Shown piece by piece: positions 8,794 through 51,362 of a stretch of DNA of 64,000 nucleotides (the first letter of the stretch is position 1; each line of letters starts with the position of its first letter). The notes beneath the pieces were generated by a model, which did no database searches, was not told the origin of the DNA, and saw nothing but the letters and a program-made list of their open reading frames with translations. Source of the DNA: Candidatus Parcubacteria bacterium. GTDB taxonomy: Bacteria; Patescibacteriota; Minisyncoccia; SURF-38. The stretch spans positions 4,654 to 68,653 of the forward strand of contig QZJN01000003.1 of NCBI GenBank assembly GCA_003599335.1. Direction: 5' to 3'. The position numbers and the translations under genes are program-made.

Positions 8794-10521
8794 ATGAGTA
8801 ACGACGAGATTGCCAAGGTTTTGAATGAACTTGCTGGCTTTTTAGATATGGATGAAGTTCAGTTTAAGCCGAGAGCCTTTGAAAAAGCCGCAGAAGTAAT
8901 TTCAGCCTTTGAACAAGAGATCCCCGAGCTTTATAAGGAGGGCGGCTTGAAGGGAATTATGAGGATACCGGGGGTTGGTGTTGGCATTGCCGAGCGCATT
9001 GAAGAGTTTTTAAAAACAGGACACATTAAAGATCTTGATAAACTTAAGAAAAAATATCCCGTTGATTATCAACAGTTGCGGCGCGTTGAGGGCGTTGGCC
9101 CAAAACACATCAAGAAACTTTACAGGGATTTAGGCATACGCACTTTGGAAGATTTGGAAAATGCGGCCAAAAAAGGAAAAATCAGGAAACTTGGTCATTT
9201 TGGGCAAAAATCAGAGGAAAATATTTTAAGAGGGATAGATTTTGTTAAAAGTTCCGGAGGTCGTTTTGTGTTGGGTGATATTTTGCCGCTTGTGCGTCTA
9301 ATTGAAGAAAGGCTCGGGGCTCTTAAAGAAACAAAGAAGGTTGTTGTCGCCGGTTCTATCAGGCGCTGGAAAGAGACAATCGGGGATATAGATATTTTGG
9401 TTGTCTCAAAAAAACCCAGAAAGGTAATGGATTTTTTTGTAAAAATGCCCGAAGTGATTGATGTTCATGCCCATGGAGAAACAAAAAGTTCTGTTAAACT
9501 TTCAAAAGGAATCGATGTTGATTTAAGAGTCGTTGAAGAAAAAAGTTTTGGCGCCGCGCTTAATTATTTTACTGGCTCAAAAGATCACAACGTTGCCCTA
9601 AGGCAGCTTGCCATAAAGAAGGGTTATAAGCTCAATGAGTACGGTCTTTACAAGGGGGCTAAATTTGTCGCCGGAAGAAACGAAGAAGAATTATATAAGG
9701 CGCTTGGCTTCAAACAGACTTTTATTCCTCCAGAAATGCGCGAAACGAAAGGAGAAATTGAAGCCGCATTAAAAGGAGAGTTGCCAGAGATTATTGGCTA
9801 TAAAGATTTGAGAGGAGACTTACAGACTCAAACCAACTGGACCGACGGCGCTCACTCGATTGAAGAGATGAGCTTGGCTGCCAAAAAAGCCGGACTTGAA
9901 TACATTGTAATTACCGATCATACCAAGGCTTTGGCAATGACGGGGGGTAACGATGAAAAAAGATTGCTCAAACAATGGGCCGAGATTGATGGGCTTAACA
10001 AAAAAGGGCTGGGAGTTAAAATCTTGAAAGGCGCAGAGGTAAATATTTTAAAAGACGGAAGTTTAGATATTGATGATAAAACTCTTTCTCAAGGCGATGT
10101 TATTGGCGCGGCCGTGCACACCAATTTTAATATGAGTAAAAAAGATATGACCGAGCGTATAAAAAGAGCTATGAAAAATCCAAACGTAGATATTTTGTTT
10201 CATCCAACCGGGCGACTAATTAATAAAAGAGAAGCATATGAACTTGATATGGAAGAAATTATAAAAACCGCCAAAAATAGCGGGACGATTTTGGAGATAG
10301 ATGCTTATCCCGACAGGCTTGATCTTAAGGATGATCATATACGTTCAGCCATTGAGGCCGGGGTAAAGCTTTCAATTGACTCTGATGCTCATAATAAGAA
10401 TCATTTTGGGGTCTTGGAGTTTGGTGTCGCCCAGGCAAGACGAGGTTGGGCCACCAAAAAAGATATTATCAATGCTTGGCCGGCCGAAAAGATGTTAAAA
10501 TCTTTAAAAGATGCCCGTTGA
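8794..10521 (+). CDS. polX: DNA polymerase/3'-5' exonuclease PolX (Pol beta-like domain plus C-terminal PHP domain)
   Basis: N-terminal helix-hairpin-helix and Pol-beta nucleotidyltransferase motifs (GSIRRWKETIGDIDILV). C-terminal PHP histidinol-phosphatase-like block (ITDHT..., FHPTGR..., DSDAH). Start placed at MSNDEI, which fits PolX N-termini. Confidence 0.85.
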   Translation: MSNDEIAKVLNELAGFLDMDEVQFKPRAFEKAAEVISAFEQEIPELYKEGGLKGIMRIPGVGVGIAERIEEFLKTGHIKDLDKLKKKYPVDYQQLRRVEGVGPKHIKKLYRDLGIRTLEDLENAAKKGKIRKLGHFGQKSEENILRGIDFVKSSGGRFVLGDILPLVRLIEERLGALKETKKVVVAGSIRRWKETIGDIDILVVSKKPRKVMDFFVKMPEVIDVHAHGETKSSVKLSKGIDVDLRVVEEKSFGAALNYFTGSKDHNVALRQLAIKKGYKLNEYGLYKGAKFVAGRNEEELYKALGFKQTFIPPEMRETKGEIEAALKGELPEIIGYKDLRGDLQTQTNWTDGAHSIEEMSLAAKKAGLEYIVITDHTKALAMTGGNDEKRLLKQWAEIDGLNKKGLGVKILKGAEVNILKDGSLDIDDKTLSQGDVIGAAVHTNFNMSKKDMTERIKRAMKNPNVDILFHPTGRLINKREAYELDMEEIIKTAKNSGTILEIDAYPDRLDLKDDHIRSAIEAGVKLSIDSDAHNKNHFGVLEFGVAQARRGWATKKDIINAWPAEKMLKSLKDAR

Positions 10522-13943: not shown

Positions 13944-14522
13944 ATGGCTTTGAGGCAAGAGTATCGCTGCGTGCCTTTCGCGCGGTTCACCGAAATAGTT
14001 TTTGAAATCGGCCGCGATGTCGTTTCCAGGGGCGGCAGCGAGGAAGATTGGAATGTCTTGAGGGCGCTTCTTGAGGAAGCCAAGGCAGAAAGCCTCAAGG
14101 AGCGTCGGGCGGAAGAACAAAAGGTTGCGGAGCAGATCGAGAAAATCACCGCTTCCATGTTGCACCGCAAGCTCAAGCTCAATTTGCCCGACGACGTTGA
14201 CCCCGAGCACATCCAGGCCATTTTGGTTTATGGGTTTATCGCTCCCTCGAGCAGCAAGAGATTTGTGGGGAGTAGGTTTCTGCCTGGCGAGCACATCCTC
14301 AAGGATGTGTTCAACAAGCTGGGGCCGAAATTCAACGCTGTGGAGTACCGCGTAGCCTTCAGCTTTCTCGTCAATCACGGGGTTATCCGCGAGCGTTCCA
14401 GGCGCACCACGGTTTACTCCATGAGTGTCAACGAGGGGTCTTCGGAGCTGACCGACTGGGGCATTCAAATCGTTCGTTCGTGCAAGCAGTTTATGCACGA
14501 GCAACACAACCACAACAAATAG
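13944..14522 (+). CDS. GC-rich (about 57%) orphan hypothetical protein
   Basis: Coding-like ORF with a strong compositional contrast to its neighbours. RBS-like AAGGAAAGGG precedes the ATG at 13944 (the track ORF starts earlier, at TTG 13920). Strong terminator follows. The antisense ORF 13926..14513 is interpreted as a shadow ORF. Confidence 0.45.
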   Translation: MALRQEYRCVPFARFTEIVFEIGRDVVSRGGSEEDWNVLRALLEEAKAESLKERRAEEQKVAEQIEKITASMLHRKLKLNLPDDVDPEHIQAILVYGFIAPSSSKRFVGSRFLPGEHILKDVFNKLGPKFNAVEYRVAFSFLVNHGVIRERSRRTTVYSMSVNEGSSELTDWGIQIVRSCKQFMHEQHNHNK

Positions 14523-16214: not shown

Positions 16215-16290
16215 CCTTTCTATTTTGCCAGCTTTGAGGAATTTGGGCAAAAAAGAAAAAGGCCAATTTGGGTTAGCCTTTTTCTATCTG

Positions 16291-16309
16291 GTGGAGATGG
16301 GCGGAGTTG
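16291..16309. repeat. 19-nt direct repeat of the tmRNA 3' end (att-like footprint)
   Basis: GTGGAGATGGGCGGAGTTG at 16291-16309 is identical to 16490-16508, the complement of the tmRNA T-arm/acceptor 3' end. Confidence 0.7.
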
Positions 16310-16489
16310 CCTACAACTCTCACCAACTTCCGTTGGCTCGGTCGCAGGCCCGCCTCGCGGTTTGGCTCGCCTGTCGCTCGCCAAACATCGCTCCGGCATT
16401 CAACTCGGCTCGCGAGTAAAGCAGTTTACTCGCTTCTCATCTCCACATAAATCAAAAATTACCCAGCATTTATTGGGTAATTTTTGCTT
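16310..16489 (-). mobile_element. 180-bp GC-rich remnant segment between the tmRNA 3' end and its displaced 19-nt copy; carries the hairpin GCGAGTAAA..TTTACTCGC and the core GAGTTGAATGCCGGA shared with the tRNA-Leu-associated element
   Basis: Hairpin at 16412-16433 (plus-strand coordinates). The 15-nt core at 16392-16406 is the reverse complement of 51199-51213. A tmRNA terminator hairpin lies at 16462-16490. Confidence 0.5.
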
Positions 16490-16786
16490 GTGGAGATGGG
16501 CGGAGTTGAACCGCCGTCCGGAAGAAGCTTGATGACAAAGTTTCTACGAATGTACCCCCGTACGTGGGAGAGACGCTAAAAAGTTCAGTGCCTGCTTGCG
16601 CAGGCGCGCTCAATATATAACACCGGTTTTCTGCCCATTGAGCATCAGCAGGCCGATGGGCTTACTTAAGCGTAAGCCAGTGCCAAGTTTTTGTTGGCAG
16701 TTATAAGTTTTGCACCAGATTTACAAGTTAGTGCAGCTTGATTCGCGCTTTGTCAGAACATTCATCCGTCGAAGCCCGACATCCCC
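16488..16786 (-). ncRNA. ssrA: tmRNA (SsrA), one-piece
   Basis: Minus-strand 5' GGGGAUGUCGGGCUUCGACGG, like the canonical tmRNA 5' end. The 3' end is ..GGACGGCGGUUCAACUCCGCCCAUCUCCA(CA), with a G3:U acceptor pair. The internal tag reading frame is GCC AAC AAA AAC UUG GCA CUG GCU UAC GCU UAA, giving ANKNLALAYA. smpB is immediately upstream. Confidence 0.85.
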
Positions 16787-18961: not shown

Positions 18962-21900
18962 ATGGAGGATGAAAACAAGAACGAATTTGTAAAGCAAGAA
19001 GAGGAGGTTTTGAAGTTTTGGCAAAAAAGAGATATTTTTGCCAAAAGTATAGCGTTGGCTAAAAATGCCAGACGCTTTGTTTTTTTTGAAGGGCCGCCTT
19101 CAGCCAACGCAAAGCCGGGGATTCATCACGTTTTGGCCCGTACCTATAAAGATTTATTTTGTCGGTTTAAGGCCATGTGCGGCTTTTTGGTGGAAAGAAA
19201 AGCCGGTTGGGATACTCATGGTTTGCCGATCGAAGTTCAGCTTGAGAAAGAGCTCGGTCTTAAAAATAAAAAAGAAATCGAACAATTCGGAGTTGATAAA
19301 TTCAACACCAAAGCCAAAGATTTGGTGTGGCGATACAAAGAAGAGTGGGAGAAGCTTACCGAAAGAATAGGTTTTTGGTTAAATCAGCAAGATCCATATA
19401 TAACTTACGATTGGCGTTACATCGAAAGCCTCTGGTGGATTATAAAACAAATTTCAAAGCGCGGTCTTTTGTACCAGGATTATAAAGTTGTTCCATATTG
19501 CACCCGTTGTGGCACGCCTTTATCTTCCCATGAAGTTGCGCAGGGATATAAAGAGGTTGAAGACGAAGCGGTTTACGTGAAGTTTAGAGTAAAAGAGGGA
19601 CAAAAGATTGGTGAATTTACTGCCAATGATAAAACTTATATCCTTGCCTGGACAACAACTCCATGGACATTGCCTGGGAACGTTGCTTTAGCTGTTGGGA
19701 AAAACATAAATTATAATCTTGTTCGCGTTGATGGGGATGATGAATTTTTGATAGCTGCCGAAGCTTTGGTCCAAAAAGTTTCTGAAGGGCGTTTATTTGA
19801 GAATACCCAGGTTTTTAAGGGTTCTGTATTGGTTGGTTTAAAATATGAACCTTTATTTAATATTTCCGCCCTTCAAAATGAAAAATCCCACAGGGTTTAT
19901 CCGGCTGATTTTGTTACTACAGAAGATGGCACCGGTGTTGTTCATACGGCCGTGATGTATGGAGAAGAAGATTTTGAGCTTGGTAAAAAAGTTGGCTTGC
20001 CGCAGCATCACACGGTTGACGAACAGGGAAAATTTACAAACGAAGTTCAGGGTTTTGAAAACCTTTACGTTAAAGACAAGGAAACCGAACAAAAAATAAT
20101 CTTTTACCTTAACGACAAGGGGTTTCTTTTTAAGACTCATAAGTATCGTCACGAATATCCATTCTGTTGGCGGTGTGATTCGCCTCTTTTGTACTACGCT
20201 TTAACATCGTGGTTTGTCGGGACTTCTAAAATAAGAAGCGAGCTTATAAAAAACAATAAAAAAATAAACTGGATTCCCGAACATATAAAAGAAGGGAGAT
20301 TTGGGACCTGGCTTAAGGAGCTTAAAGATTGGGCTTTTTCTCGAAACAGATATTGGGGTACTCCCTTGCCGGTCTGGCAGTGCCAAGTTTGCTCTCATCA
20401 AATGGTAATTGGTTCGCTTGATGAACTGACCGAGAATGCGTTTCATGTTCAGAATAATTATTTGCTTTTAAGACACGGGGGTACGGATTTAAACAAAAAA
20501 GAAATTTTAAATTCAGATCCGACCAAACAAGGAGATGAATTTGGCCTTAACGAAAACGGTCTGACGCAGATAAAAGCCATTATTCCAAAACTCAAGAAGA
20601 AGGCCGTAGATCTTATTTTTTCTTCAGATTTTCAGCGCACAAAAGAAACAGCCGAACTTATTGCGGGAGAGCTTGGGCTTAAGGTTGAGTATGATAAAAA
20701 ACTCCGAGAGATTGAGTTTGGGGTTTTTGACGATCAGCCCTATTCCAAGATGGATCATAATTTTCCTCACGGCCTTTCCCGTTTTGAAAAAAAACCCCAG
20801 GGAGGCGAAAACTACCGTAAAGTACGAACCAGAATGATGGAGTTTGTGTTGGGGTTGGAGAAAAAATATCACGGCAAGACTATACTTGTCGTTTCTCACG
20901 AAAATCCATTATGGCTGCTTGAAACAGGAATAAAAGGTTTGTCTGATGAAGGTTCCCTTAAATGGCGTAAGGAAAACTACATCAACACCGGACAATTTCA
21001 TGAATTGTATTTTCCGAATTATCCCTACAATAAGAAAGGCGAAATAGATTTGCACAGGCCTTATATTGATGGTGTTAGTTTAAAATGCAAAAAGTGCGGT
21101 AAGGAATCTCGGAGGGTTTCGGAGTTGATTGATGTTTGGTTTGATTCAGGAGCCATGCCTTATGCGCAGTGGCATTATCCCTTTGAAAATAAACAAAAAG
21201 TTGATGGTTTAAGAGCCGAGGCTTTTCCTGCAGATTTTATTTCCGAAGGCGTTGATCAAACAAGGGGATGGTTTTACTCATTGCTTGGGATTTCAACTTT
21301 GCTTGGCAGAGGTCCGTCTTATTTAAACGTCGTTTCTTTGGCTCATGTTCTTGATAAAGATGGTCAAAAAATGTCTAAATCAAAAGGAAATGTTGTTGAT
21401 CCTTGGTATGTTGTCGGAAAATACGGAGCCGATACGACAAGGTGGTATTTTTACGTTACTAATCCGGCCGGAGAACCAAAACTTTTCAACGAGAACAACC
21501 TGGCCTTGCAGCAAAGGGGATTTCTAAGGCTGCTTTGGAATTCATGGGTATTTTTTGAGACGTACGCCAGGAGGGGAGTTAAAAAACCAGAAGGAGTATT
21601 TGAGTTGAAAAAGAAAGTGAACATTCTTGATTTGTGGCTCGATTCTTATCTCAACGAAACAATTTTTGAAGTAAGATCGGCTCTTGAAGCTTATGATGCA
21701 ACTGGCGCGGCCAGGAGTCTTGAAAAATTTGTGGCCGATCTTTCAAATTGGTATATTCGTCGTTCAAGGGAAAGATTTCAGAGACCGACCGACTTAAATG
21801 ATTACGAGAACGGTCGTCAATATTTTGCCAAAGCTCTCTATATGGGAGGAATTTTGAGCGCTCCTTTTATACCCTTTCTGAGCGAATCAATATATCAGCG

Positions 21901-22540
21901 TATGAAGGTTTTTCCACAGCTTCGGTTTTTGAAATTTGCCGAGAGTGTTCACCTCAATCCTTATCCCGTTTGGCAAAAAGGAAAAACAGACAAAGAAGCT
22001 CTTAAAAATATGACGATAGTTAGGGAATTAGCCACGGCTGTTCATGCCTTGCGGGACAAGGCCAATGTCAAAGTCCGCCAACCACTAAAACAGCTTCAGC
22101 TAAAACTTAACGAAAAAGTTAAATTGTCTTCTGAGCTTTTGAAGATTTTGGCGGAAGAAATCAACGTTAAAGAAGTTGTGGTTGTTGAAGATATAAAACA
22201 ATCTCAAGATGTTGTTGTGTCTGAAGTGGTTCACGGCAAACTTGGTCTTAATATCGTTCTTGATGATTATCTTAGACAGGAAGGTTTTATCCGCGAACTA
22301 ATAAGAAATATTCAGGATATGAGAAAAACTATAGGGCTTTCTCCAGAAATTTCAGTAGCCCTTTACCTTGGGGCCGAAGACAAATTTTTTGGTTTTGCCA
22401 AGAATTATTTTGATGAACTTAAGCATAAAACCAATGCTAAAAGCATTGAATTTAAGGATATCCTTGAAGGGTCTTTTGATATCGAGAGGGATTTTCGTCT
22501 CGGGGAGCATAATATCCGGGTCGCAATAAAGAAGTTATAG
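18962..22540 (+). CDS. ileS: Isoleucyl-tRNA synthetase (type 2-like) with an inserted ~195-aa histidine-phosphatase (PGAM-like) domain
   Basis: IleRS motifs: PPSANAKPGIHHVLAR (HIGH region), GWDTHGLPIE and KMSKSKGN. Between the WAFSRNRYWGTP and DVWFDSGAMPYA core blocks (about nt 20450-21040) there is an insert with the histidine-phosphatase triad of motifs LLLRHGGTDLN (RHG), SSDFQRTKETAE and LVVSHENPL. Confidence 0.85.
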   Translation: MEDENKNEFVKQEEEVLKFWQKRDIFAKSIALAKNARRFVFFEGPPSANAKPGIHHVLARTYKDLFCRFKAMCGFLVERKAGWDTHGLPIEVQLEKELGLKNKKEIEQFGVDKFNTKAKDLVWRYKEEWEKLTERIGFWLNQQDPYITYDWRYIESLWWIIKQISKRGLLYQDYKVVPYCTRCGTPLSSHEVAQGYKEVEDEAVYVKFRVKEGQKIGEFTANDKTYILAWTTTPWTLPGNVALAVGKNINYNLVRVDGDDEFLIAAEALVQKVSEGRLFENTQVFKGSVLVGLKYEPLFNISALQNEKSHRVYPADFVTTEDGTGVVHTAVMYGEEDFELGKKVGLPQHHTVDEQGKFTNEVQGFENLYVKDKETEQKIIFYLNDKGFLFKTHKYRHEYPFCWRCDSPLLYYALTSWFVGTSKIRSELIKNNKKINWIPEHIKEGRFGTWLKELKDWAFSRNRYWGTPLPVWQCQVCSHQMVIGSLDELTENAFHVQNNYLLLRHGGTDLNKKEILNSDPTKQGDEFGLNENGLTQIKAIIPKLKKKAVDLIFSSDFQRTKETAELIAGELGLKVEYDKKLREIEFGVFDDQPYSKMDHNFPHGLSRFEKKPQGGENYRKVRTRMMEFVLGLEKKYHGKTILVVSHENPLWLLETGIKGLSDEGSLKWRKENYINTGQFHELYFPNYPYNKKGEIDLHRPYIDGVSLKCKKCGKESRRVSELIDVWFDSGAMPYAQWHYPFENKQKVDGLRAEAFPADFISEGVDQTRGWFYSLLGISTLLGRGPSYLNVVSLAHVLDKDGQKMSKSKGNVVDPWYVVGKYGADTTRWYFYVTNPAGEPKLFNENNLALQQRGFLRLLWNSWVFFETYARRGVKKPEGVFELKKKVNILDLWLDSYLNETIFEVRSALEAYDATGAARSLEKFVADLSNWYIRRSRERFQRPTDLNDYENGRQYFAKALYMGGILSAPFIPFLSESIYQRMKVFPQLRFLKFAESVHLNPYPVWQKGKTDKEALKNMTIVRELATAVHALRDKANVKVRQPLKQLQLKLNEKVKLSSELLKILAEEINVKEVVVVEDIKQSQDVVVSEVVHGKLGLNIVLDDYLRQEGFIRELIRNIQDMRKTIGLSPEISVALYLGAEDKFFGFAKNYFDELKHKTNAKSIEFKDILEGSFDIERDFRLGEHNIRVAIKKL

Positions 22541-47704: not shown

Positions 47705-47748
47705 AATTTTCAATTTCCAATTTCAAATTTTCAATCAATTTTCAATGG
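47705..47748. repeat. Left inverted-repeat arm (AATTTTCAATTTCCAATTTCAAATTTTCAATCAATTTTCAATGG) of the IVS-like cassette
   Basis: Reverse-complementary in composition and units to 48095-48131. Confidence 0.5.
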
Positions 47749-48113
47749 ATCAAATCCAGAAAACAAAATACGATTTGGAGGATCGAACGGCTAAATTTGG
47801 GGAAGAGGTTATTAAGTTTTGTAAAGCTATCCATCAAAATACAATTACAAAACCACTAATTTCTCAGCTTGTTAGGTCTGCTACTAGCATCGGAGCAAAT
47901 TATATGGAAGCAAATGGAGCAAGTTCTCGAAAAGATTTTAGAAACAAGATTTTTATTTGTAAGAAAGAATCTTAAGAAACTAAGCACTGGCTAAGGATGC
48001 TTTTAGAGGCTATGCCGAATAAAAAAGATGAGATACAAGGTTTATGGCGAGAGGTGCAAGAGCTAACTTTAATTTTTCAAAAGATTATCACGTCATTGAA
48101 AATTGAAAATTAA
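47745..48113 (+). pseudogene. Four-helix-bundle protein gene (TIGR02436, 23S rRNA intervening-sequence protein family) interrupted by an in-frame TAA at 47973-47975
   Basis: ORF 47745..47975 (..SIGANYMEANGASSRKDFRNKIFICKKES*) continues in the same frame after the TAA as ETKHWLRMLLEAMPNKKDEIQGLWREVQELTLIFQKIITSLKIEN*. Together these reconstitute the canonical ~122-aa family, including KExxETxxWL. Confidence 0.6.
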
Positions 48114-49624: not shown

Positions 49625-49747
49625 ACTTTGCGTTTTTGGGCAGGTGGGCGATAAGCGAATAAATGCAGCTTATCGCTAGAGCCAAAAGGCGATTGGGCCG
49701 ACACCTGCCACAGTTTTTTGATCGAGGCTTTGCCGAGAAGTACATGC

Positions 49748-49830
49748 GGGCAGGTGGCGGAATGGCAGACGCGCTGGACTCAAAATCCAGTGAGAGTAAT
49801 CTCGTGAGGGTTCAACTCCCTCCCTGCCCA
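49748..49830 (+). tRNA. tRNA-Leu (anticodon CAA), class II with long variable arm; CCA not encoded
   Basis: GGGCAGG acceptor stem pairing with CCTGCCC then A. D-arm GUGGCGGAAUGGCAGACGCG resembles Leu tRNAs. Anticodon stem-loop CTGGA-CTCAAAA-TCCAG. Long variable arm. T-arm GAGGG-TTCAACT-CCCTC. Confidence 0.8.
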
Positions 49831-49831
49831 C
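49813..49831 (+). repeat. tRNA-Leu 3'-terminal 19 nt (CAACTCCCTCCCTGCCCAC), directly repeated at 51269-51287 (att-like)
   Basis: Exact 19-nt identity between the two positions. Confidence 0.7.
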
Positions 49832-49952
49832 TGGTTGGAGAGTTTTTGTATTGAGAGTAATAAAACATCGCAGAAGCGATGTTTTCTGTTTATAAATGAG
49901 GTTCCAACCTTGAAAAAAGGGTTCTACTCTTTAGTTGTCATAAAAACAAACA

Positions 49953-49990
49953 CGTCCCGCCAGGAAAATCCTAACGGGACGTTTTTTGTT
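49953..49990. terminator. Bidirectional hairpin terminator (ACGTCCCG..CGGGACGT followed by TTTTTT)
   Basis: Perfect 8-bp stem with a T-run. Confidence 0.55.
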
Positions 49991-50822
49991 AATGAAAGAA
50001 CGATTGGGTTTTTGGCACCAGTTTCAACACGCGGATGGAGAGGATCTCGTAATTGAGTACTCCCCACAAAGCGCCGGCAAGTCCGCCGATCAATGCGTTG
50101 CCAAAGTAAAACCCGATGGCCGCGCCAATCGCACCATCCACGCCGCACAGCAAACGGATTTCCGAGTGGATGAGACGGAACCATGTGGCAGAAAATATTG
50201 CCACTGCGTGAATGAAACCGATCAACCCTGACGCGATCACGTTTCTCTTTTGCCACAGGAATCGCGGCAAGTGATAAAAGACGGCCCGCGGCACCAAATA
50301 CAGGAAGAATTTGGGGAGTATCCAGAAATAGACTCTGAATGGGCTGAGGTTAAATAATCCTCCAGCCCTAAATGTCTCTTTGAGTGTATGAACATTCCCA
50401 TGCGGAGTTATGAACAAGGCAAAAAAGAGAGGAAACCCCAACGTGATCAGTGGAAACAAGAATACTATCGGATTAGGGTTTCCCCATAGCATTATTGTTA
50501 AGAGAGAAGCGAAGGGAAATCCAACAATCGTTAGCAGGTCGCCTGCAAGATTGAGGTATGCTTTTCCCCAAGCTCTCCAGAATACCGCGTCCGGCCGCAA
50601 AGTGCGCATCTCATTCCATAATTTGGGAAATGAGTTGCGCATTTTATTCCACGCTTTGGGAACTGCCGCGATCACTTTGTTGAATTCATATGCCAGGTAT
50701 CCGATGGCAAAGCCGGCAATCATGCCGACCCACCAGAACATGGGTGTCATCTGCAGCGCAACGAGCGCGCCGATGAACCCGCCGATGAAACAAGACAGAA
50801 ACACTTTGGCCGTGTGGCTCAT
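49989..50822 (-). CDS. GC-rich polytopic membrane protein, hypothetical (cargo of the tRNA-Leu-associated element)
   Basis: 277 aa, about 8 TM helices, GC well above neighbours. No recognisable family. Confidence 0.4.
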   Translation of the reverse strand: MSHTAKVFLSCFIGGFIGALVALQMTPMFWWVGMIAGFAIGYLAYEFNKVIAAVPKAWNKMRNSFPKLWNEMRTLRPDAVFWRAWGKAYLNLAGDLLTIVGFPFASLLTIMLWGNPNPIVFLFPLITLGFPLFFALFITPHGNVHTLKETFRAGGLFNLSPFRVYFWILPKFFLYLVPRAVFYHLPRFLWQKRNVIASGLIGFIHAVAIFSATWFRLIHSEIRLLCGVDGAIGAAIGFYFGNALIGGLAGALWGVLNYEILSIRVLKLVPKTQSFFH

Positions 50823-51167
50823 AGAGCCCTCCTTTATAAAGTTTGGGTGTCTTTGGGAAATTGAAAAGAGCGAATGTTGGAATTAATATATAACTAAACA
50901 ATATATTTGTCAAGTCAGGTTAGCATAGTGCTACGTAACATAAAGCACGCACCCTTATGAAGGTGTTCAATTTTTTGTACTCTGAAGGTGAAAATTTTTA
51001 GTAGGGAATTACTGGTCCTGACCAGTCATTTTTGCTTTGAGGTTCTCCAACATAGATGAACTTTTGCGGCGGTTCAGCTTCTTTTGGATCTTTGAGCATC
51101 GGGATTACAAATCCAGGATTTTGGATGAAAAAGGTTCGAACGTCATTGAGAGTGGCCCACAACTAAA

Positions 51168-51213
51168 AAATACGAGTAAATTTATTTACTCGTATTTGGA
51201 GTTGAATGCCGGA
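51168..51213 (+). repeat. Conserved module: 14-bp perfect palindromic hairpin AAATACGAGTAAAT/ATTTACTCGTATTT followed by GGAGTTGAATGCCGGA
   Basis: Homologous to the module at 16392-16433 on the opposite strand: same CGAGTAAA..TTTACTCG hairpin core and identical 15-nt GAGTTGAATGCCGGA. Confidence 0.55.
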
Positions 51214-51362
51214 ATCATGCCTTGGCAGATGAGGCGGGGTCGCGAGTTCACAAAGTGAAACTCGTGACCAACTCCCTCCCTGCCCACAATCTAAATTATT
51301 GTTTATCCAAGGGGCCTGAGCCGCTTTTTTGTCATTTTTTTACGTGTTAAGATTGTTATTGT

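Follow-up and report, generated by a model that had tools for sequence, protein, structure and literature searches.

Small recombinase-less insertions at the tRNA-Leu(CAA) and tmRNA genes of a Parcubacteria genome: candidate T-loop-targeting integrative elements with a shared arm module

A 64,000-nucleotide stretch of the Candidatus Parcubacteria bacterium assembly GCA_003599335.1 (contig QZJN01000003.1, positions 4,654 to 68,653, forward strand), hereafter termed the window, was analysed with respect to a tRNA-Leu(CAA) gene whose 3' end is repeated downstream, enclosing a membrane-protein gene. ARAGORN identified two RNA genes in the window, this intact tRNA-Leu(CAA) gene (49748-49831, plus strand; Rfam tRNA score of 61.2 bits) and a transfer-messenger RNA (tmRNA) gene (16490-16786, minus strand; Rfam score of 122.9 bits) at a locus 33 kb away. 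The tRNA differs in one base from its orthologue in the related contig L016 (98.8% identity), and is flanked on the left by glyA, a 23S rRNA intervening-sequence protein (23S-IVP) gene, folD and a PAP2 phosphatase gene, and on the right by parB, relA/spoT and topA. Both RNA genes were found to carry an insertion directly downstream of their 3' ends, such that the tiny genome from which the window derives contains a family of minute insertions, devoid of a recombinase and aimed at the T-loops of RNA genes.

The last 19 nt of the tRNA-Leu gene, CAACTCCCTCCCTGCCCAC, occur exactly twice in the window and on the plus strand in both instances, as a proximal, attL-like copy within the gene (49813-49831) and a distal, attR-like copy (51269-51287). 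No third site was found across the window even at three mismatches, and none of 100 dinucleotide shuffles contained two matches, which upholds the exact repeat described in a first-pass annotation of this DNA. Within the tRNA, the repeat spans the third T-loop base (the C of TTCAACT), the 3' strands of the T-stem and acceptor stem, the discriminator A and one further C. The boundary at the distal copy is sharp, with 19/19 identity and near-random similarity upstream. Approximately 75 nt of native flank, colinear in length with that of relatives, separate the distal copy from the parB ATG, and AATCTAAATT is the flank which the tRNA-Leu body would adjoin at an empty site. The enclosed segment (49832-51268) comprises 1,437 bp, hence the element amounts to 1,456 bp when one repeat copy is counted.

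The same annotation had credited the segment with a GC content of about 50% against 40% locally, a single minus-strand membrane-protein gene, two hairpin terminators and no recombinase. The enclosed segment does hold just one sizeable open reading frame (ORF), of 277 amino acids (49989-50822, minus strand), and the lack of a recombinase was borne out both for the island and for the sizeable ORFs scanned across the window. The GC estimate applies to the ORF (49.5%) and not to the whole segment (45.2%, relative to 40.5 ± 3.9% in windows of the same size, 10% of which were equally high). Terminators do follow the tRNA and the ORF, but a consensus scan returned three strong hairpins, namely one on the plus strand right after the restored tRNA and inside the insertion (49862-49885), one on the minus strand directly after the stop codon of the ORF, with a 14-bp stem followed by a T-run (49952-49982), and a third, perfect hairpin (51168-51197). 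Two short tRNA-like fragments are also present (49852-49861 and 49918-49929). A 54-amino-acid ORF (50998-51162, minus strand) is of doubtful reality, having no family match and nothing similar in the other loci compared; the string 'FIYVGE' within it was considered as a GIY-YIG motif and rejected, as it is not a GIY-YIG match.

The product of the enclosed gene is an all-helical membrane protein, identical to NCBI C4553_00635, of an uncharacterised Patescibacteria family with the invariant motif H219..R223-L-L-C226..D229, and both ends of the protein are glycine-zipper-like. A promoter-like TTGACA-17-TATATT, recognised by an 11/12 consensus match only, is situated 5' of the gene (50885-50913, minus strand), and this putative promoter, the ORF and the predicted terminator constitute a self-contained cassette. 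A search for the protein elsewhere retrieved 71 database matches, inclusive of the window's own sequence, with non-self identities of no more than 42%. In three other genomes examined for context, the homologues were situated beside core cell-wall genes (L001), in the vicinity of ThsB and AbiU2 defence genes (L002) and in the vicinity of a CBASS operon (L004), with none of the three adjoining a tRNA. An origin of the cargo from phage or plasmid was rejected, since no match was retrieved from IMG/VR, GenBank phages or PLSDB. The GC content at third codon positions (GC3) is 0.597, as opposed to 0.30-0.40 (about 0.35) for the window's core genes, whilst the two closest homologues reside in loci of 50-51% GC and have a gene GC3 of 0.64. 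That the composition of the cargo fits the loci of its homologues and not its host points to a fairly recent horizontal acquisition, apparently from a patescibacterium of approximately 50% GC.

At the tmRNA gene, the last 19 nt (CAACTCCGCCCATCTCCAC; 16490-16508, minus strand) recur exactly at 16291-16309 on the minus strand, 199 nt downstream of the proximal copy, with two matches again present in none of 100 shuffles. The register of this repeat is that of the tRNA-Leu repeat, from the T-loop C (C56) to one base beyond the discriminator, and the two 19-mers have just GGTTCAACTCC in common. Read along the minus strand, the gene end ...GGTTCAACTCCGCCCATCTCCAC (16490) is succeeded by the terminator hairpin of the working gene (16454-16485), by GTGGAGATG (16438-16446), which is the reverse complement of the last 9 nt of the repeat, by a hairpin formed of GCGAGTAAA..TTTACTCGC, by GAGTTGAATGCCGGA, by further conserved blocks and lastly by CAACTCCGCCCATCTCCAC (16309-16291). 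Less its repeat copy, the 199-bp insertion occupies 16310-16485 (minus strand) and consists of the hairpin, GTGGAGATG and an arm module, without any gene. The displaced fragment (16256-16309, minus strand) comprises the 19-mer, then ...CCACCAG, and a strong intrinsic terminator (16256-16283). The working gene ends ...CCACAA and hence does not encode CCA, which the displaced fragment does, as in the Rfam consensus. A displaced fragment with an encoded CCA and a strong terminator, alongside a working gene with ACAA and a different terminator, is what would result had an inserted element supplied the proximal copy and the distal copy been the gene's original end. Amongst the 103 tRNA and tmRNA (collectively t(m)RNA) genes of the patescibacterial loci examined, only two, both of them in the window, are followed by an exact second copy of their extreme 3' end, and the few other matches were internal to the T-arm.

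A search of the tRNA-Leu island against the rest of the window revealed that the sequences preceding the two distal copies are homologous. This paralogous module, hairpin-rich and approximately 110-140 nt in length, occupies 51165-51268 (plus strand) at the tRNA-Leu locus and 16310-16433 (minus strand) at the tmRNA locus. The tRNA-Leu arm is ordered as a hairpin (51171-51194), GAGTTGAATGCCGGA (51199-51213), GAGGCGGG, a second hairpin (51243-51264) and GTGAnAnTnGT, and the 15-mer GAGTTGAATGCCGGA is identical in the tmRNA arm (16392-16406). The arms align up to the 19-mer core without a shift of register. The local alignment score of 52 compares with 21.9 ± 3.9 for dinucleotide shuffles (z of 7.8, 0/2000) and with a maximum of 40 over all other segments of the window. 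Predicted folds of both arms are unusually stable (z of -7.7 for tRNA-Leu and -8.7 for tmRNA), and the 19-mers are base-paired within them. Only these two copies were found by nhmmer over the window and 246 loci, pattern scans of IMG/VR gave matches confined to the seed, and neither module matched an Rfam family at E<=5-10.

A small antisense ORF was observed across both modules, at 51188-51287 (minus strand, 33 amino acids) and 16291-16419 (plus strand, 42 amino acids). Both versions start with a GTG opposite the end of the 19-mer and terminate at a TAA located within the first hairpin, the indels between them preserve the reading frame, and the products end ...PAFNS..E*. As the identical 15-nt block shows no synonymous changes and no ribosome-binding site is present, the ORF was judged to be probably non-coding.

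Syntenic contigs were reached via ParB homologues, the closest of those covering the region being L015 and L016, with ParB identities of approximately 71%. Both have the order serine hydroxymethyltransferase (SHMT)-FolD-PAP2-tRNA-Leu(CAA)-ParB-RelA-TopA-DprA, with gaps between PAP2 and parB of 167 bp and 257 bp that contain the tRNA alone and no membrane gene, in comparison to 1,738 bp in the window. The site between PAP2 and the 3' end of the tRNA is thus unoccupied in these relatives. The first-pass annotation had anticipated an empty site in which tRNA-Leu is directly followed by parB, and whilst relatives devoid of the island do exist, their tRNA does not stand directly before parB in the same orientation, its 3' end instead abutting PAP2. 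An inversion must therefore be invoked besides the insertion. The tRNA-targeting island architecture which that annotation had proposed is nonetheless supported by the empty sites, the foreign GC3, the homologues in genomes of approximately 50% GC and the self-contained cassette, and on the loci compared the cargo is, by all appearances, specific to the lineage of the window at the tRNA-Leu(CAA) site. Other material lies on the 3' side of this tRNA in the more distant relatives L021 (about 500 bp with small ORFs) and L020 (a methyltransferase and an unrelated membrane protein), from which it follows that the 3' side of tRNA-Leu(CAA) is a variable spot. A scan of GTDB with ParB for closer relatives returned distant genomes only, and the contigs encoding the closest ParB proteins break at or beside tRNA-Leu. 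Contigs L017 and L018 begin (position 1) inside the anticodon loop of tRNA-Leu, and L019 and L055 begin 60-90 nt 5' of parB; such breaks, in independent assemblies of relatives, suggest that in other populations, too, the locus contains repeats or differs between strains.

Several rearrangements of tRNA-Leu genes were also observed in other contigs. Metagenome contigs carrying CAACTCCCTCCCTGCCCAC, numbering 32, mostly represent ordinary tRNA-Leu 3' ends. In L028/L044 and L032/L045/L048, a tRNA-Leu bearing the 19-mer is displaced by an insertion that carries an intact tRNA-Leu(TAG), the displaced 3' fragments lying 38 or 107 nt downstream, and in L032 the inserted tRNA-Leu(TAG) is flanked by a 14-nt inverted repeat. 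Upstream of the parB-adjoining tRNA-Leu(CAA) of distant Patescibacteria, namely in L021 (7572-7932), L007 (1823-2135) and L016 (9431-9487), there is a duplicate of the 5' half of the tRNA (16-32 nt exact), interrupted by a palindrome; between this duplicate and the tRNA, both L021 and L007 harbour a small gene of the GIY-YIG type (Pfam E-values of 1e-16 to 1e-17). These duplicates look like a 5'-side, D-loop-targeting element. The palindrome CCTGCC(TGCC)GGCAGG(CAGG) recurs in intergenic regions of several Patescibacteria contigs (approximately 9441-9460 in L016, 7888-7907 in L021, and approximately 9656-9675 and 9940-9961 in L176) and resembles repetitive extragenic palindromic (REP) sequences or miniature inverted-repeat transposable elements (MITEs).

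With regard to the inversion, tRNA-Leu(CAA) is on the strand opposite to parB in L015, L016, L020, L021/L022 and the Saccharibacteria contig L007, and in the four Parcubacteria relatives it points with its 3' end towards the upstream gene, which is PAP2 in L015 and L016. The tRNA of the window is co-oriented with parB, unlike that of every relative found, and comparison over 49625-51362 therefore indicated that the block was inverted in the lineage of the window. Spacing is conserved on either side of the block. The initial 10 nt of the called tRNA-Leu gene recur as GGGCAGGTGG (49638-49647, plus strand), which begins 13 nt after the PAP2 stop codon and is immediately followed by a palindrome (49648-49676); the 3' end of the relatives' tRNA begins 13-17 nt after that stop codon. 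This stretch (49638-49676) is probably the counterpart of the pseudo 5' half and palindrome of L016 and L021, the homology being weak, and would represent the left inverted repeat of the inversion. On the other side, the distal ...CCTGCCCA ends 77 nt 5' of the parB ATG, and in relatives the 5' acceptor end of either the tRNA or an old pseudo 5' half is found about 66-75 nt 5' of parB. The breakpoints fall on inverted repeats of the acceptor strand, GGGCAGG and CCTGCCC, and exchange between these 7-8-bp repeats, (T)GGGCAGG and CCTGCCC(A), would be the simplest mechanism for the inversion. Insertion into the T-loop could have occurred before or after it; an inversion-first order is favoured on economy, because no coincidence is then needed at the last base of the repeat. 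Alternatively, the trailer may have been inverted too, as suggested by a 28/30 match of the distal 19-mer and its trailer to the tRNA end and native trailer of L016, a comparison in which the AT-rich flanks do not discriminate.

The Pfam search for recombinases covered the sizeable ORFs of the window other than those identified by synteny with relatives alone. A hidden recombinase or GIY-YIG remnant was also sought in the non-coding parts of the island, by comparison of six-frame peptides with all loci and with Pfam at E<=1, and none was detected. When the two loci were considered against the features by which Islander recognises genomic islands, an intact t(m)RNA gene was found to be paired with a cognate displaced fragment, exact and in direct orientation, at both, and both blocks start at the T-loop C of TTCAACT, the T-loop/T-stem being a canonical crossover sublocation alongside the anticodon loop and the 3' end. 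Variable presence was evident at tRNA-Leu through L015 and L016, these being genomes of approximately 70% protein identity with the tRNA in opposite orientation. The integrase expected inside an island is lacking, the content being the 277-amino-acid membrane protein and the doubtful 54-amino-acid ORF. The retention of exact repeats as attL and attR, with no recombinase amongst the scanned ORFs of the window, corresponds to the definition of a cis-mobilisable element (CIME), and IMG/VR yielded no relative of the module or cargo, GenBank phages and PLSDB plasmids being likewise negative for the cargo. The loci do not conform to insertion sequences (IS) or MITEs, as the tRNA-Leu element has no terminal inverted repeats, the left ends are unrelated and the repeat measures 19 bp and not 2-14 bp. 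Nor do they resemble TnpB/IscB omega-RNA or CRISPR-associated transposon (CAST) guides in content, given that no such Pfam domain occurs in the window and the modules match nothing in Rfam, and neither ARAGORN nor Rfam recognised a tRNA at the distal tRNA-Leu copy, which speaks against a tRNA pseudogene.

Other features were noted elsewhere in the window. A 76-amino-acid gene of the 23S-rRNA-intervening-sequence type (47745-47975) lies between glyA and folD, which are adjacent or overlapping in relatives, hence this gene is another small lineage-specific insertion. Strongly deviant GC3 values were also observed at 13944-14522 (0.71) and 37385-41781 (0.49-0.62, including an Ig-domain protein), and these genes were probably horizontally acquired as well. 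An ORF at 18962-22540 encodes a class I aminoacyl-tRNA synthetase of 1,192 amino acids with a His_Phos_1 domain at residues 501-665, within the match to the catalytic domain.

We consider it probable, albeit with reservations, that the tRNA-Leu and tmRNA insertions belong to the T-loop class of site-specific integrative elements and have either decayed or been mobilised in trans, comparable to CIMEs, with the module acting as a conserved attP arm. Two related small elements would have inserted site-specifically into the T-loops of tRNA-Leu(CAA) and tmRNA, each bringing its own copy of the last 19 nt of the target together with a terminator on the attL side, through which the target RNA gene would stay intact. 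The original 19-nt end and its native downstream flank would have been pushed to the far (attR) side of the element, and the module of approximately 110-140 nt just inside that end would be the shared attP arm, serving as a binding region for the recombinase and accessory proteins. In this scheme the tRNA-Leu element would carry the cassette from a patescibacterium of approximately 50% GC and the tmRNA element nothing, and the elements would either be decayed remnants or be cis-mobilisable in the manner of CIMEs, relying on a recombinase of the tyrosine or serine type whose gene lies outside them. The inversion of the tRNA-Leu block between PAP2 and parB in the lineage of the window would be a separate event. 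The repeats, the insertion with respect to syntenic relatives, the foreign composition, the paralogous module and the lack of a recombinase among the scanned ORFs of the window are observed; recombinase-mediated integration and the role of the module as an att arm are what we infer, and it is the precedents of islands, ssrA islands and CIMEs which lead us to read the module as a P-type arm and the insertions as one element family.

A number of observations weigh against this interpretation. Neither element, nor any sizeable ORF scanned in the 64-kb window, gave a Pfam integrase, transposase or TnpB match, and no copy of the module or complete relative of the elements was found in the other loci examined, IMG/VR contigs or GenBank phages. 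The left ends of the two insertions, which would be the P' side, are not similar. The relatives with an empty site share just approximately 70% protein identity and their tRNA lies in the opposite orientation, no empty site was obtained for tmRNA (synteny was not conserved among pyrG relatives), and a second copy of the 19-mer is absent from all 32 metagenome contigs carrying CAACTCCCTCCCTGCCCAC. At 199 bp and 1.46 kb, the elements are far smaller than all islands described; in a survey of K. pneumoniae, 3.5 kb was the minimum size of an island possessing both an integrase and repeats. Finally, the equal length of 19 nt at two targets also fits a target-site duplication of fixed stagger.

This last point would also fit an alternative in which the structured module is itself the active part of a non-canonical miniature mobile element. 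The module and its cognate 19-mer would then make up an undescribed family of miniature gene-less Patescibacteria elements, with a unit of approximately 200 bp, which insert at the T-loops of RNA genes containing GGTTCAACTCC, regenerate the 3' end and can acquire cassettes of one gene. Their movement would depend either on a nuclease, integrase or transposase acting in trans with a 19-nt stagger, yielding a 19-bp target-site duplication, or on an RNA-guided enzyme for which the module is the scaffold and the 19 nt the guide, in the manner of TnpB omega-RNA or CAST homing spacers. Repeat length and register are the same at two targets with only GGTTCAACTCC in common, the predicted folds are very stable (z of -7.7 and -8.7), a 199-bp unit evidently suffices without genes, and the tmRNA copy has a 9-bp inverted repeat (GTGGAGATG/CATCTCCAC). 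Moreover, GGTT stands directly 5' of the 19-mer in the working genes and GAC and AGG at the distal copies, reminiscent of self/non-self discrimination by a target-adjacent motif (TAM) or protospacer-adjacent motif (PAM). Yet no TnpB, Cas12, transposase or casposase gene occurs among the window ORFs scanned, the module matches no Rfam family, the 19-mer is paired and not free in the predicted folds, the tRNA-Leu copy lacks terminal inverted repeats, the left ends are not conserved and just two copies of the module are known. We hence regard a family of this kind as unlikely, whether the 19 nt act as a stagger or as a guide, and give it some weight even so.

Explanations that dispense with mobility fare less well. 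A fixed remnant of old rearrangements, in which local duplications, deletions and an inversion at a recombination-prone tRNA gave rise to the repeat, with the membrane gene acquired independently through illegitimate recombination, is in keeping with the rearrangement-prone nature of the locus, where the tRNA block is inverted with respect to five other genomes, where relatives harbour pseudo 5' halves, palindrome insertions and GIY-YIG genes, and where tRNA-like scraps persist at 49852-49861 and 49918-49929. Such a history leaves the same 19-nt register and a homologous module at tmRNA, 33 kb away, unexplained, and sits poorly with the sharp boundary, at which 19/19 identity gives way to near-random similarity, and with the native flanks kept by the displaced fragments; we deem it quite improbable. 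Still further down in our estimation, and very improbable, is descent of the distal copy from a tandemly duplicated tRNA-Leu gene that has since decayed, a possibility which the first-pass annotation had itself named as one that would count against its island. CTCGTGA directly 5' of the distal 19-mer does match positions 54-60 of the tRNA, GCCGGAAT..TGGCAGA resembles a D-arm, and the upstream sequence aligns colinearly with the tRNA body at marginal significance (p of 0.04-0.08). However, ARAGORN called no tRNA and Rfam returned none at the lenient threshold of E<=10, uniform decay is incompatible with 19/19 identity beside sequence of approximately 50% identity, and the upstream sequence is significantly homologous to the module preceding the tmRNA fragment, which excludes tandem tRNA-Leu decay as its source; on these grounds of tRNA calls, marginal body similarity and module homology the decayed gene was rejected. 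A chance repeat or an assembly artefact is the least credible of all, despite the source being a single metagenome-assembled contig, with no second assembly of the organism found. Chance was rejected on the shuffles (0/100 with two matches for either 19-mer), and an artefact is disfavoured by synteny with relatives that is intact on both sides, by the presence of the architecture twice and by the length of the repeat, 19 nt being shorter than the k-mers typically used by assemblers.

Mobile elements of the Patescibacteria, or candidate phyla radiation (CPR), are barely described, and the insertions bear on how such reduced genomes gain genes. In the window, a tRNA gene has received one foreign gene, with the T-loop signature familiar from textbooks but no recombinase, and the tmRNA gene has a 199-bp sister insertion with the same conserved arm. 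Should these insertions still be mobile, they would be the smallest elements known to target t(m)RNA genes (t(m)DNAs), and the arm module would provide a handle for finding the recombinase or other enzyme involved and for cataloguing CPR gene flow. If they are scars only, they would mark two past integrations and supply a usable attP-arm signature.

Site-specific integration at such genes has ample precedent, and P4-type elements integrate in leuX, a tRNA-Leu(CAA) gene. In the Islander collection, a 3' fragment accompanies 3,760 of 3,919 islands and the T-stem region is used in 1,836, with tmRNA showing the greatest enrichment as a target; an island entering a t(m)DNA rebuilds the gene, the original fragment being displaced (PMC4383910). 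The loci described here likewise combine an intact gene with a direct 3' fragment, a block running from T-loop to gene end, a 3' end supplied by the element, cargo of foreign composition, a site that varies in relatives and tmRNA as an additional target. Direct repeats of islands span 15-221 bp with a mode of 20-25 (10.1101/2020.11.02.365908), placing a 19-bp repeat within the usual range. Those islands differ in that they encode an integrase and extend from kilobases to more than 100 kb, relative to 1.46 kb and 199 bp, whereas the elements of the window carry one cargo gene or none, reside in a Patescibacteria host and have no intact relative known.

RNA-guided homing elements include IS200/IS605 elements with TnpB omega-RNA and type V-K CASTs, whose homing spacers match tRNA genes. 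The likeness to these consists of a structured right end of approximately 130 nt followed by about 19 nt matching a tRNA target, and of a T-rich motif 5' of the target that is absent 5' of the element's own copy. It is a resemblance only, as the window elements, unlike those systems, have no nuclease or transposase gene, no Rfam match and a 19-mer that is paired in the predicted folds.

CIMEs are elements that keep attL and attR after losing their integration and transfer genes (PMC5704250), and the insertions agree with them in the retention of both sites, the absence of those genes and the possibility of mobilisation in trans. CIMEs are defined by descent from a known integrative and conjugative element (ICE) or integrative and mobilisable element (IME), with demonstrated accretion and mobilisation, whilst no parent element of those in the window was found among the sequences searched. 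Among the literature found, the closest precedent appears to be the ssrA islands of Dehalococcoides, which insert in mid-T-loop by means of the serine recombinase DsiB, are bounded by a 20-bp repeat of the tmRNA end and have a conserved non-gene motif directly 5' of every displaced repeat (PMC3146451). Those islands measure several kb, form tandem arrays, usually encode a six-gene integration module at attL and use ssrA only, whereas in the window a tRNA is targeted too and the conserved arm extends to approximately 110-140 nt. Some of the Dehalococcoides islands are without the integration module, and their authors suggest that these are CIMEs (PMC3146451). The parallel with the window would thus extend to the repeat of approximately 20 bp at the 3' end of tmRNA, the conserved sequence directly 5' of the displaced repeat and the existence of members that lack an integration module.

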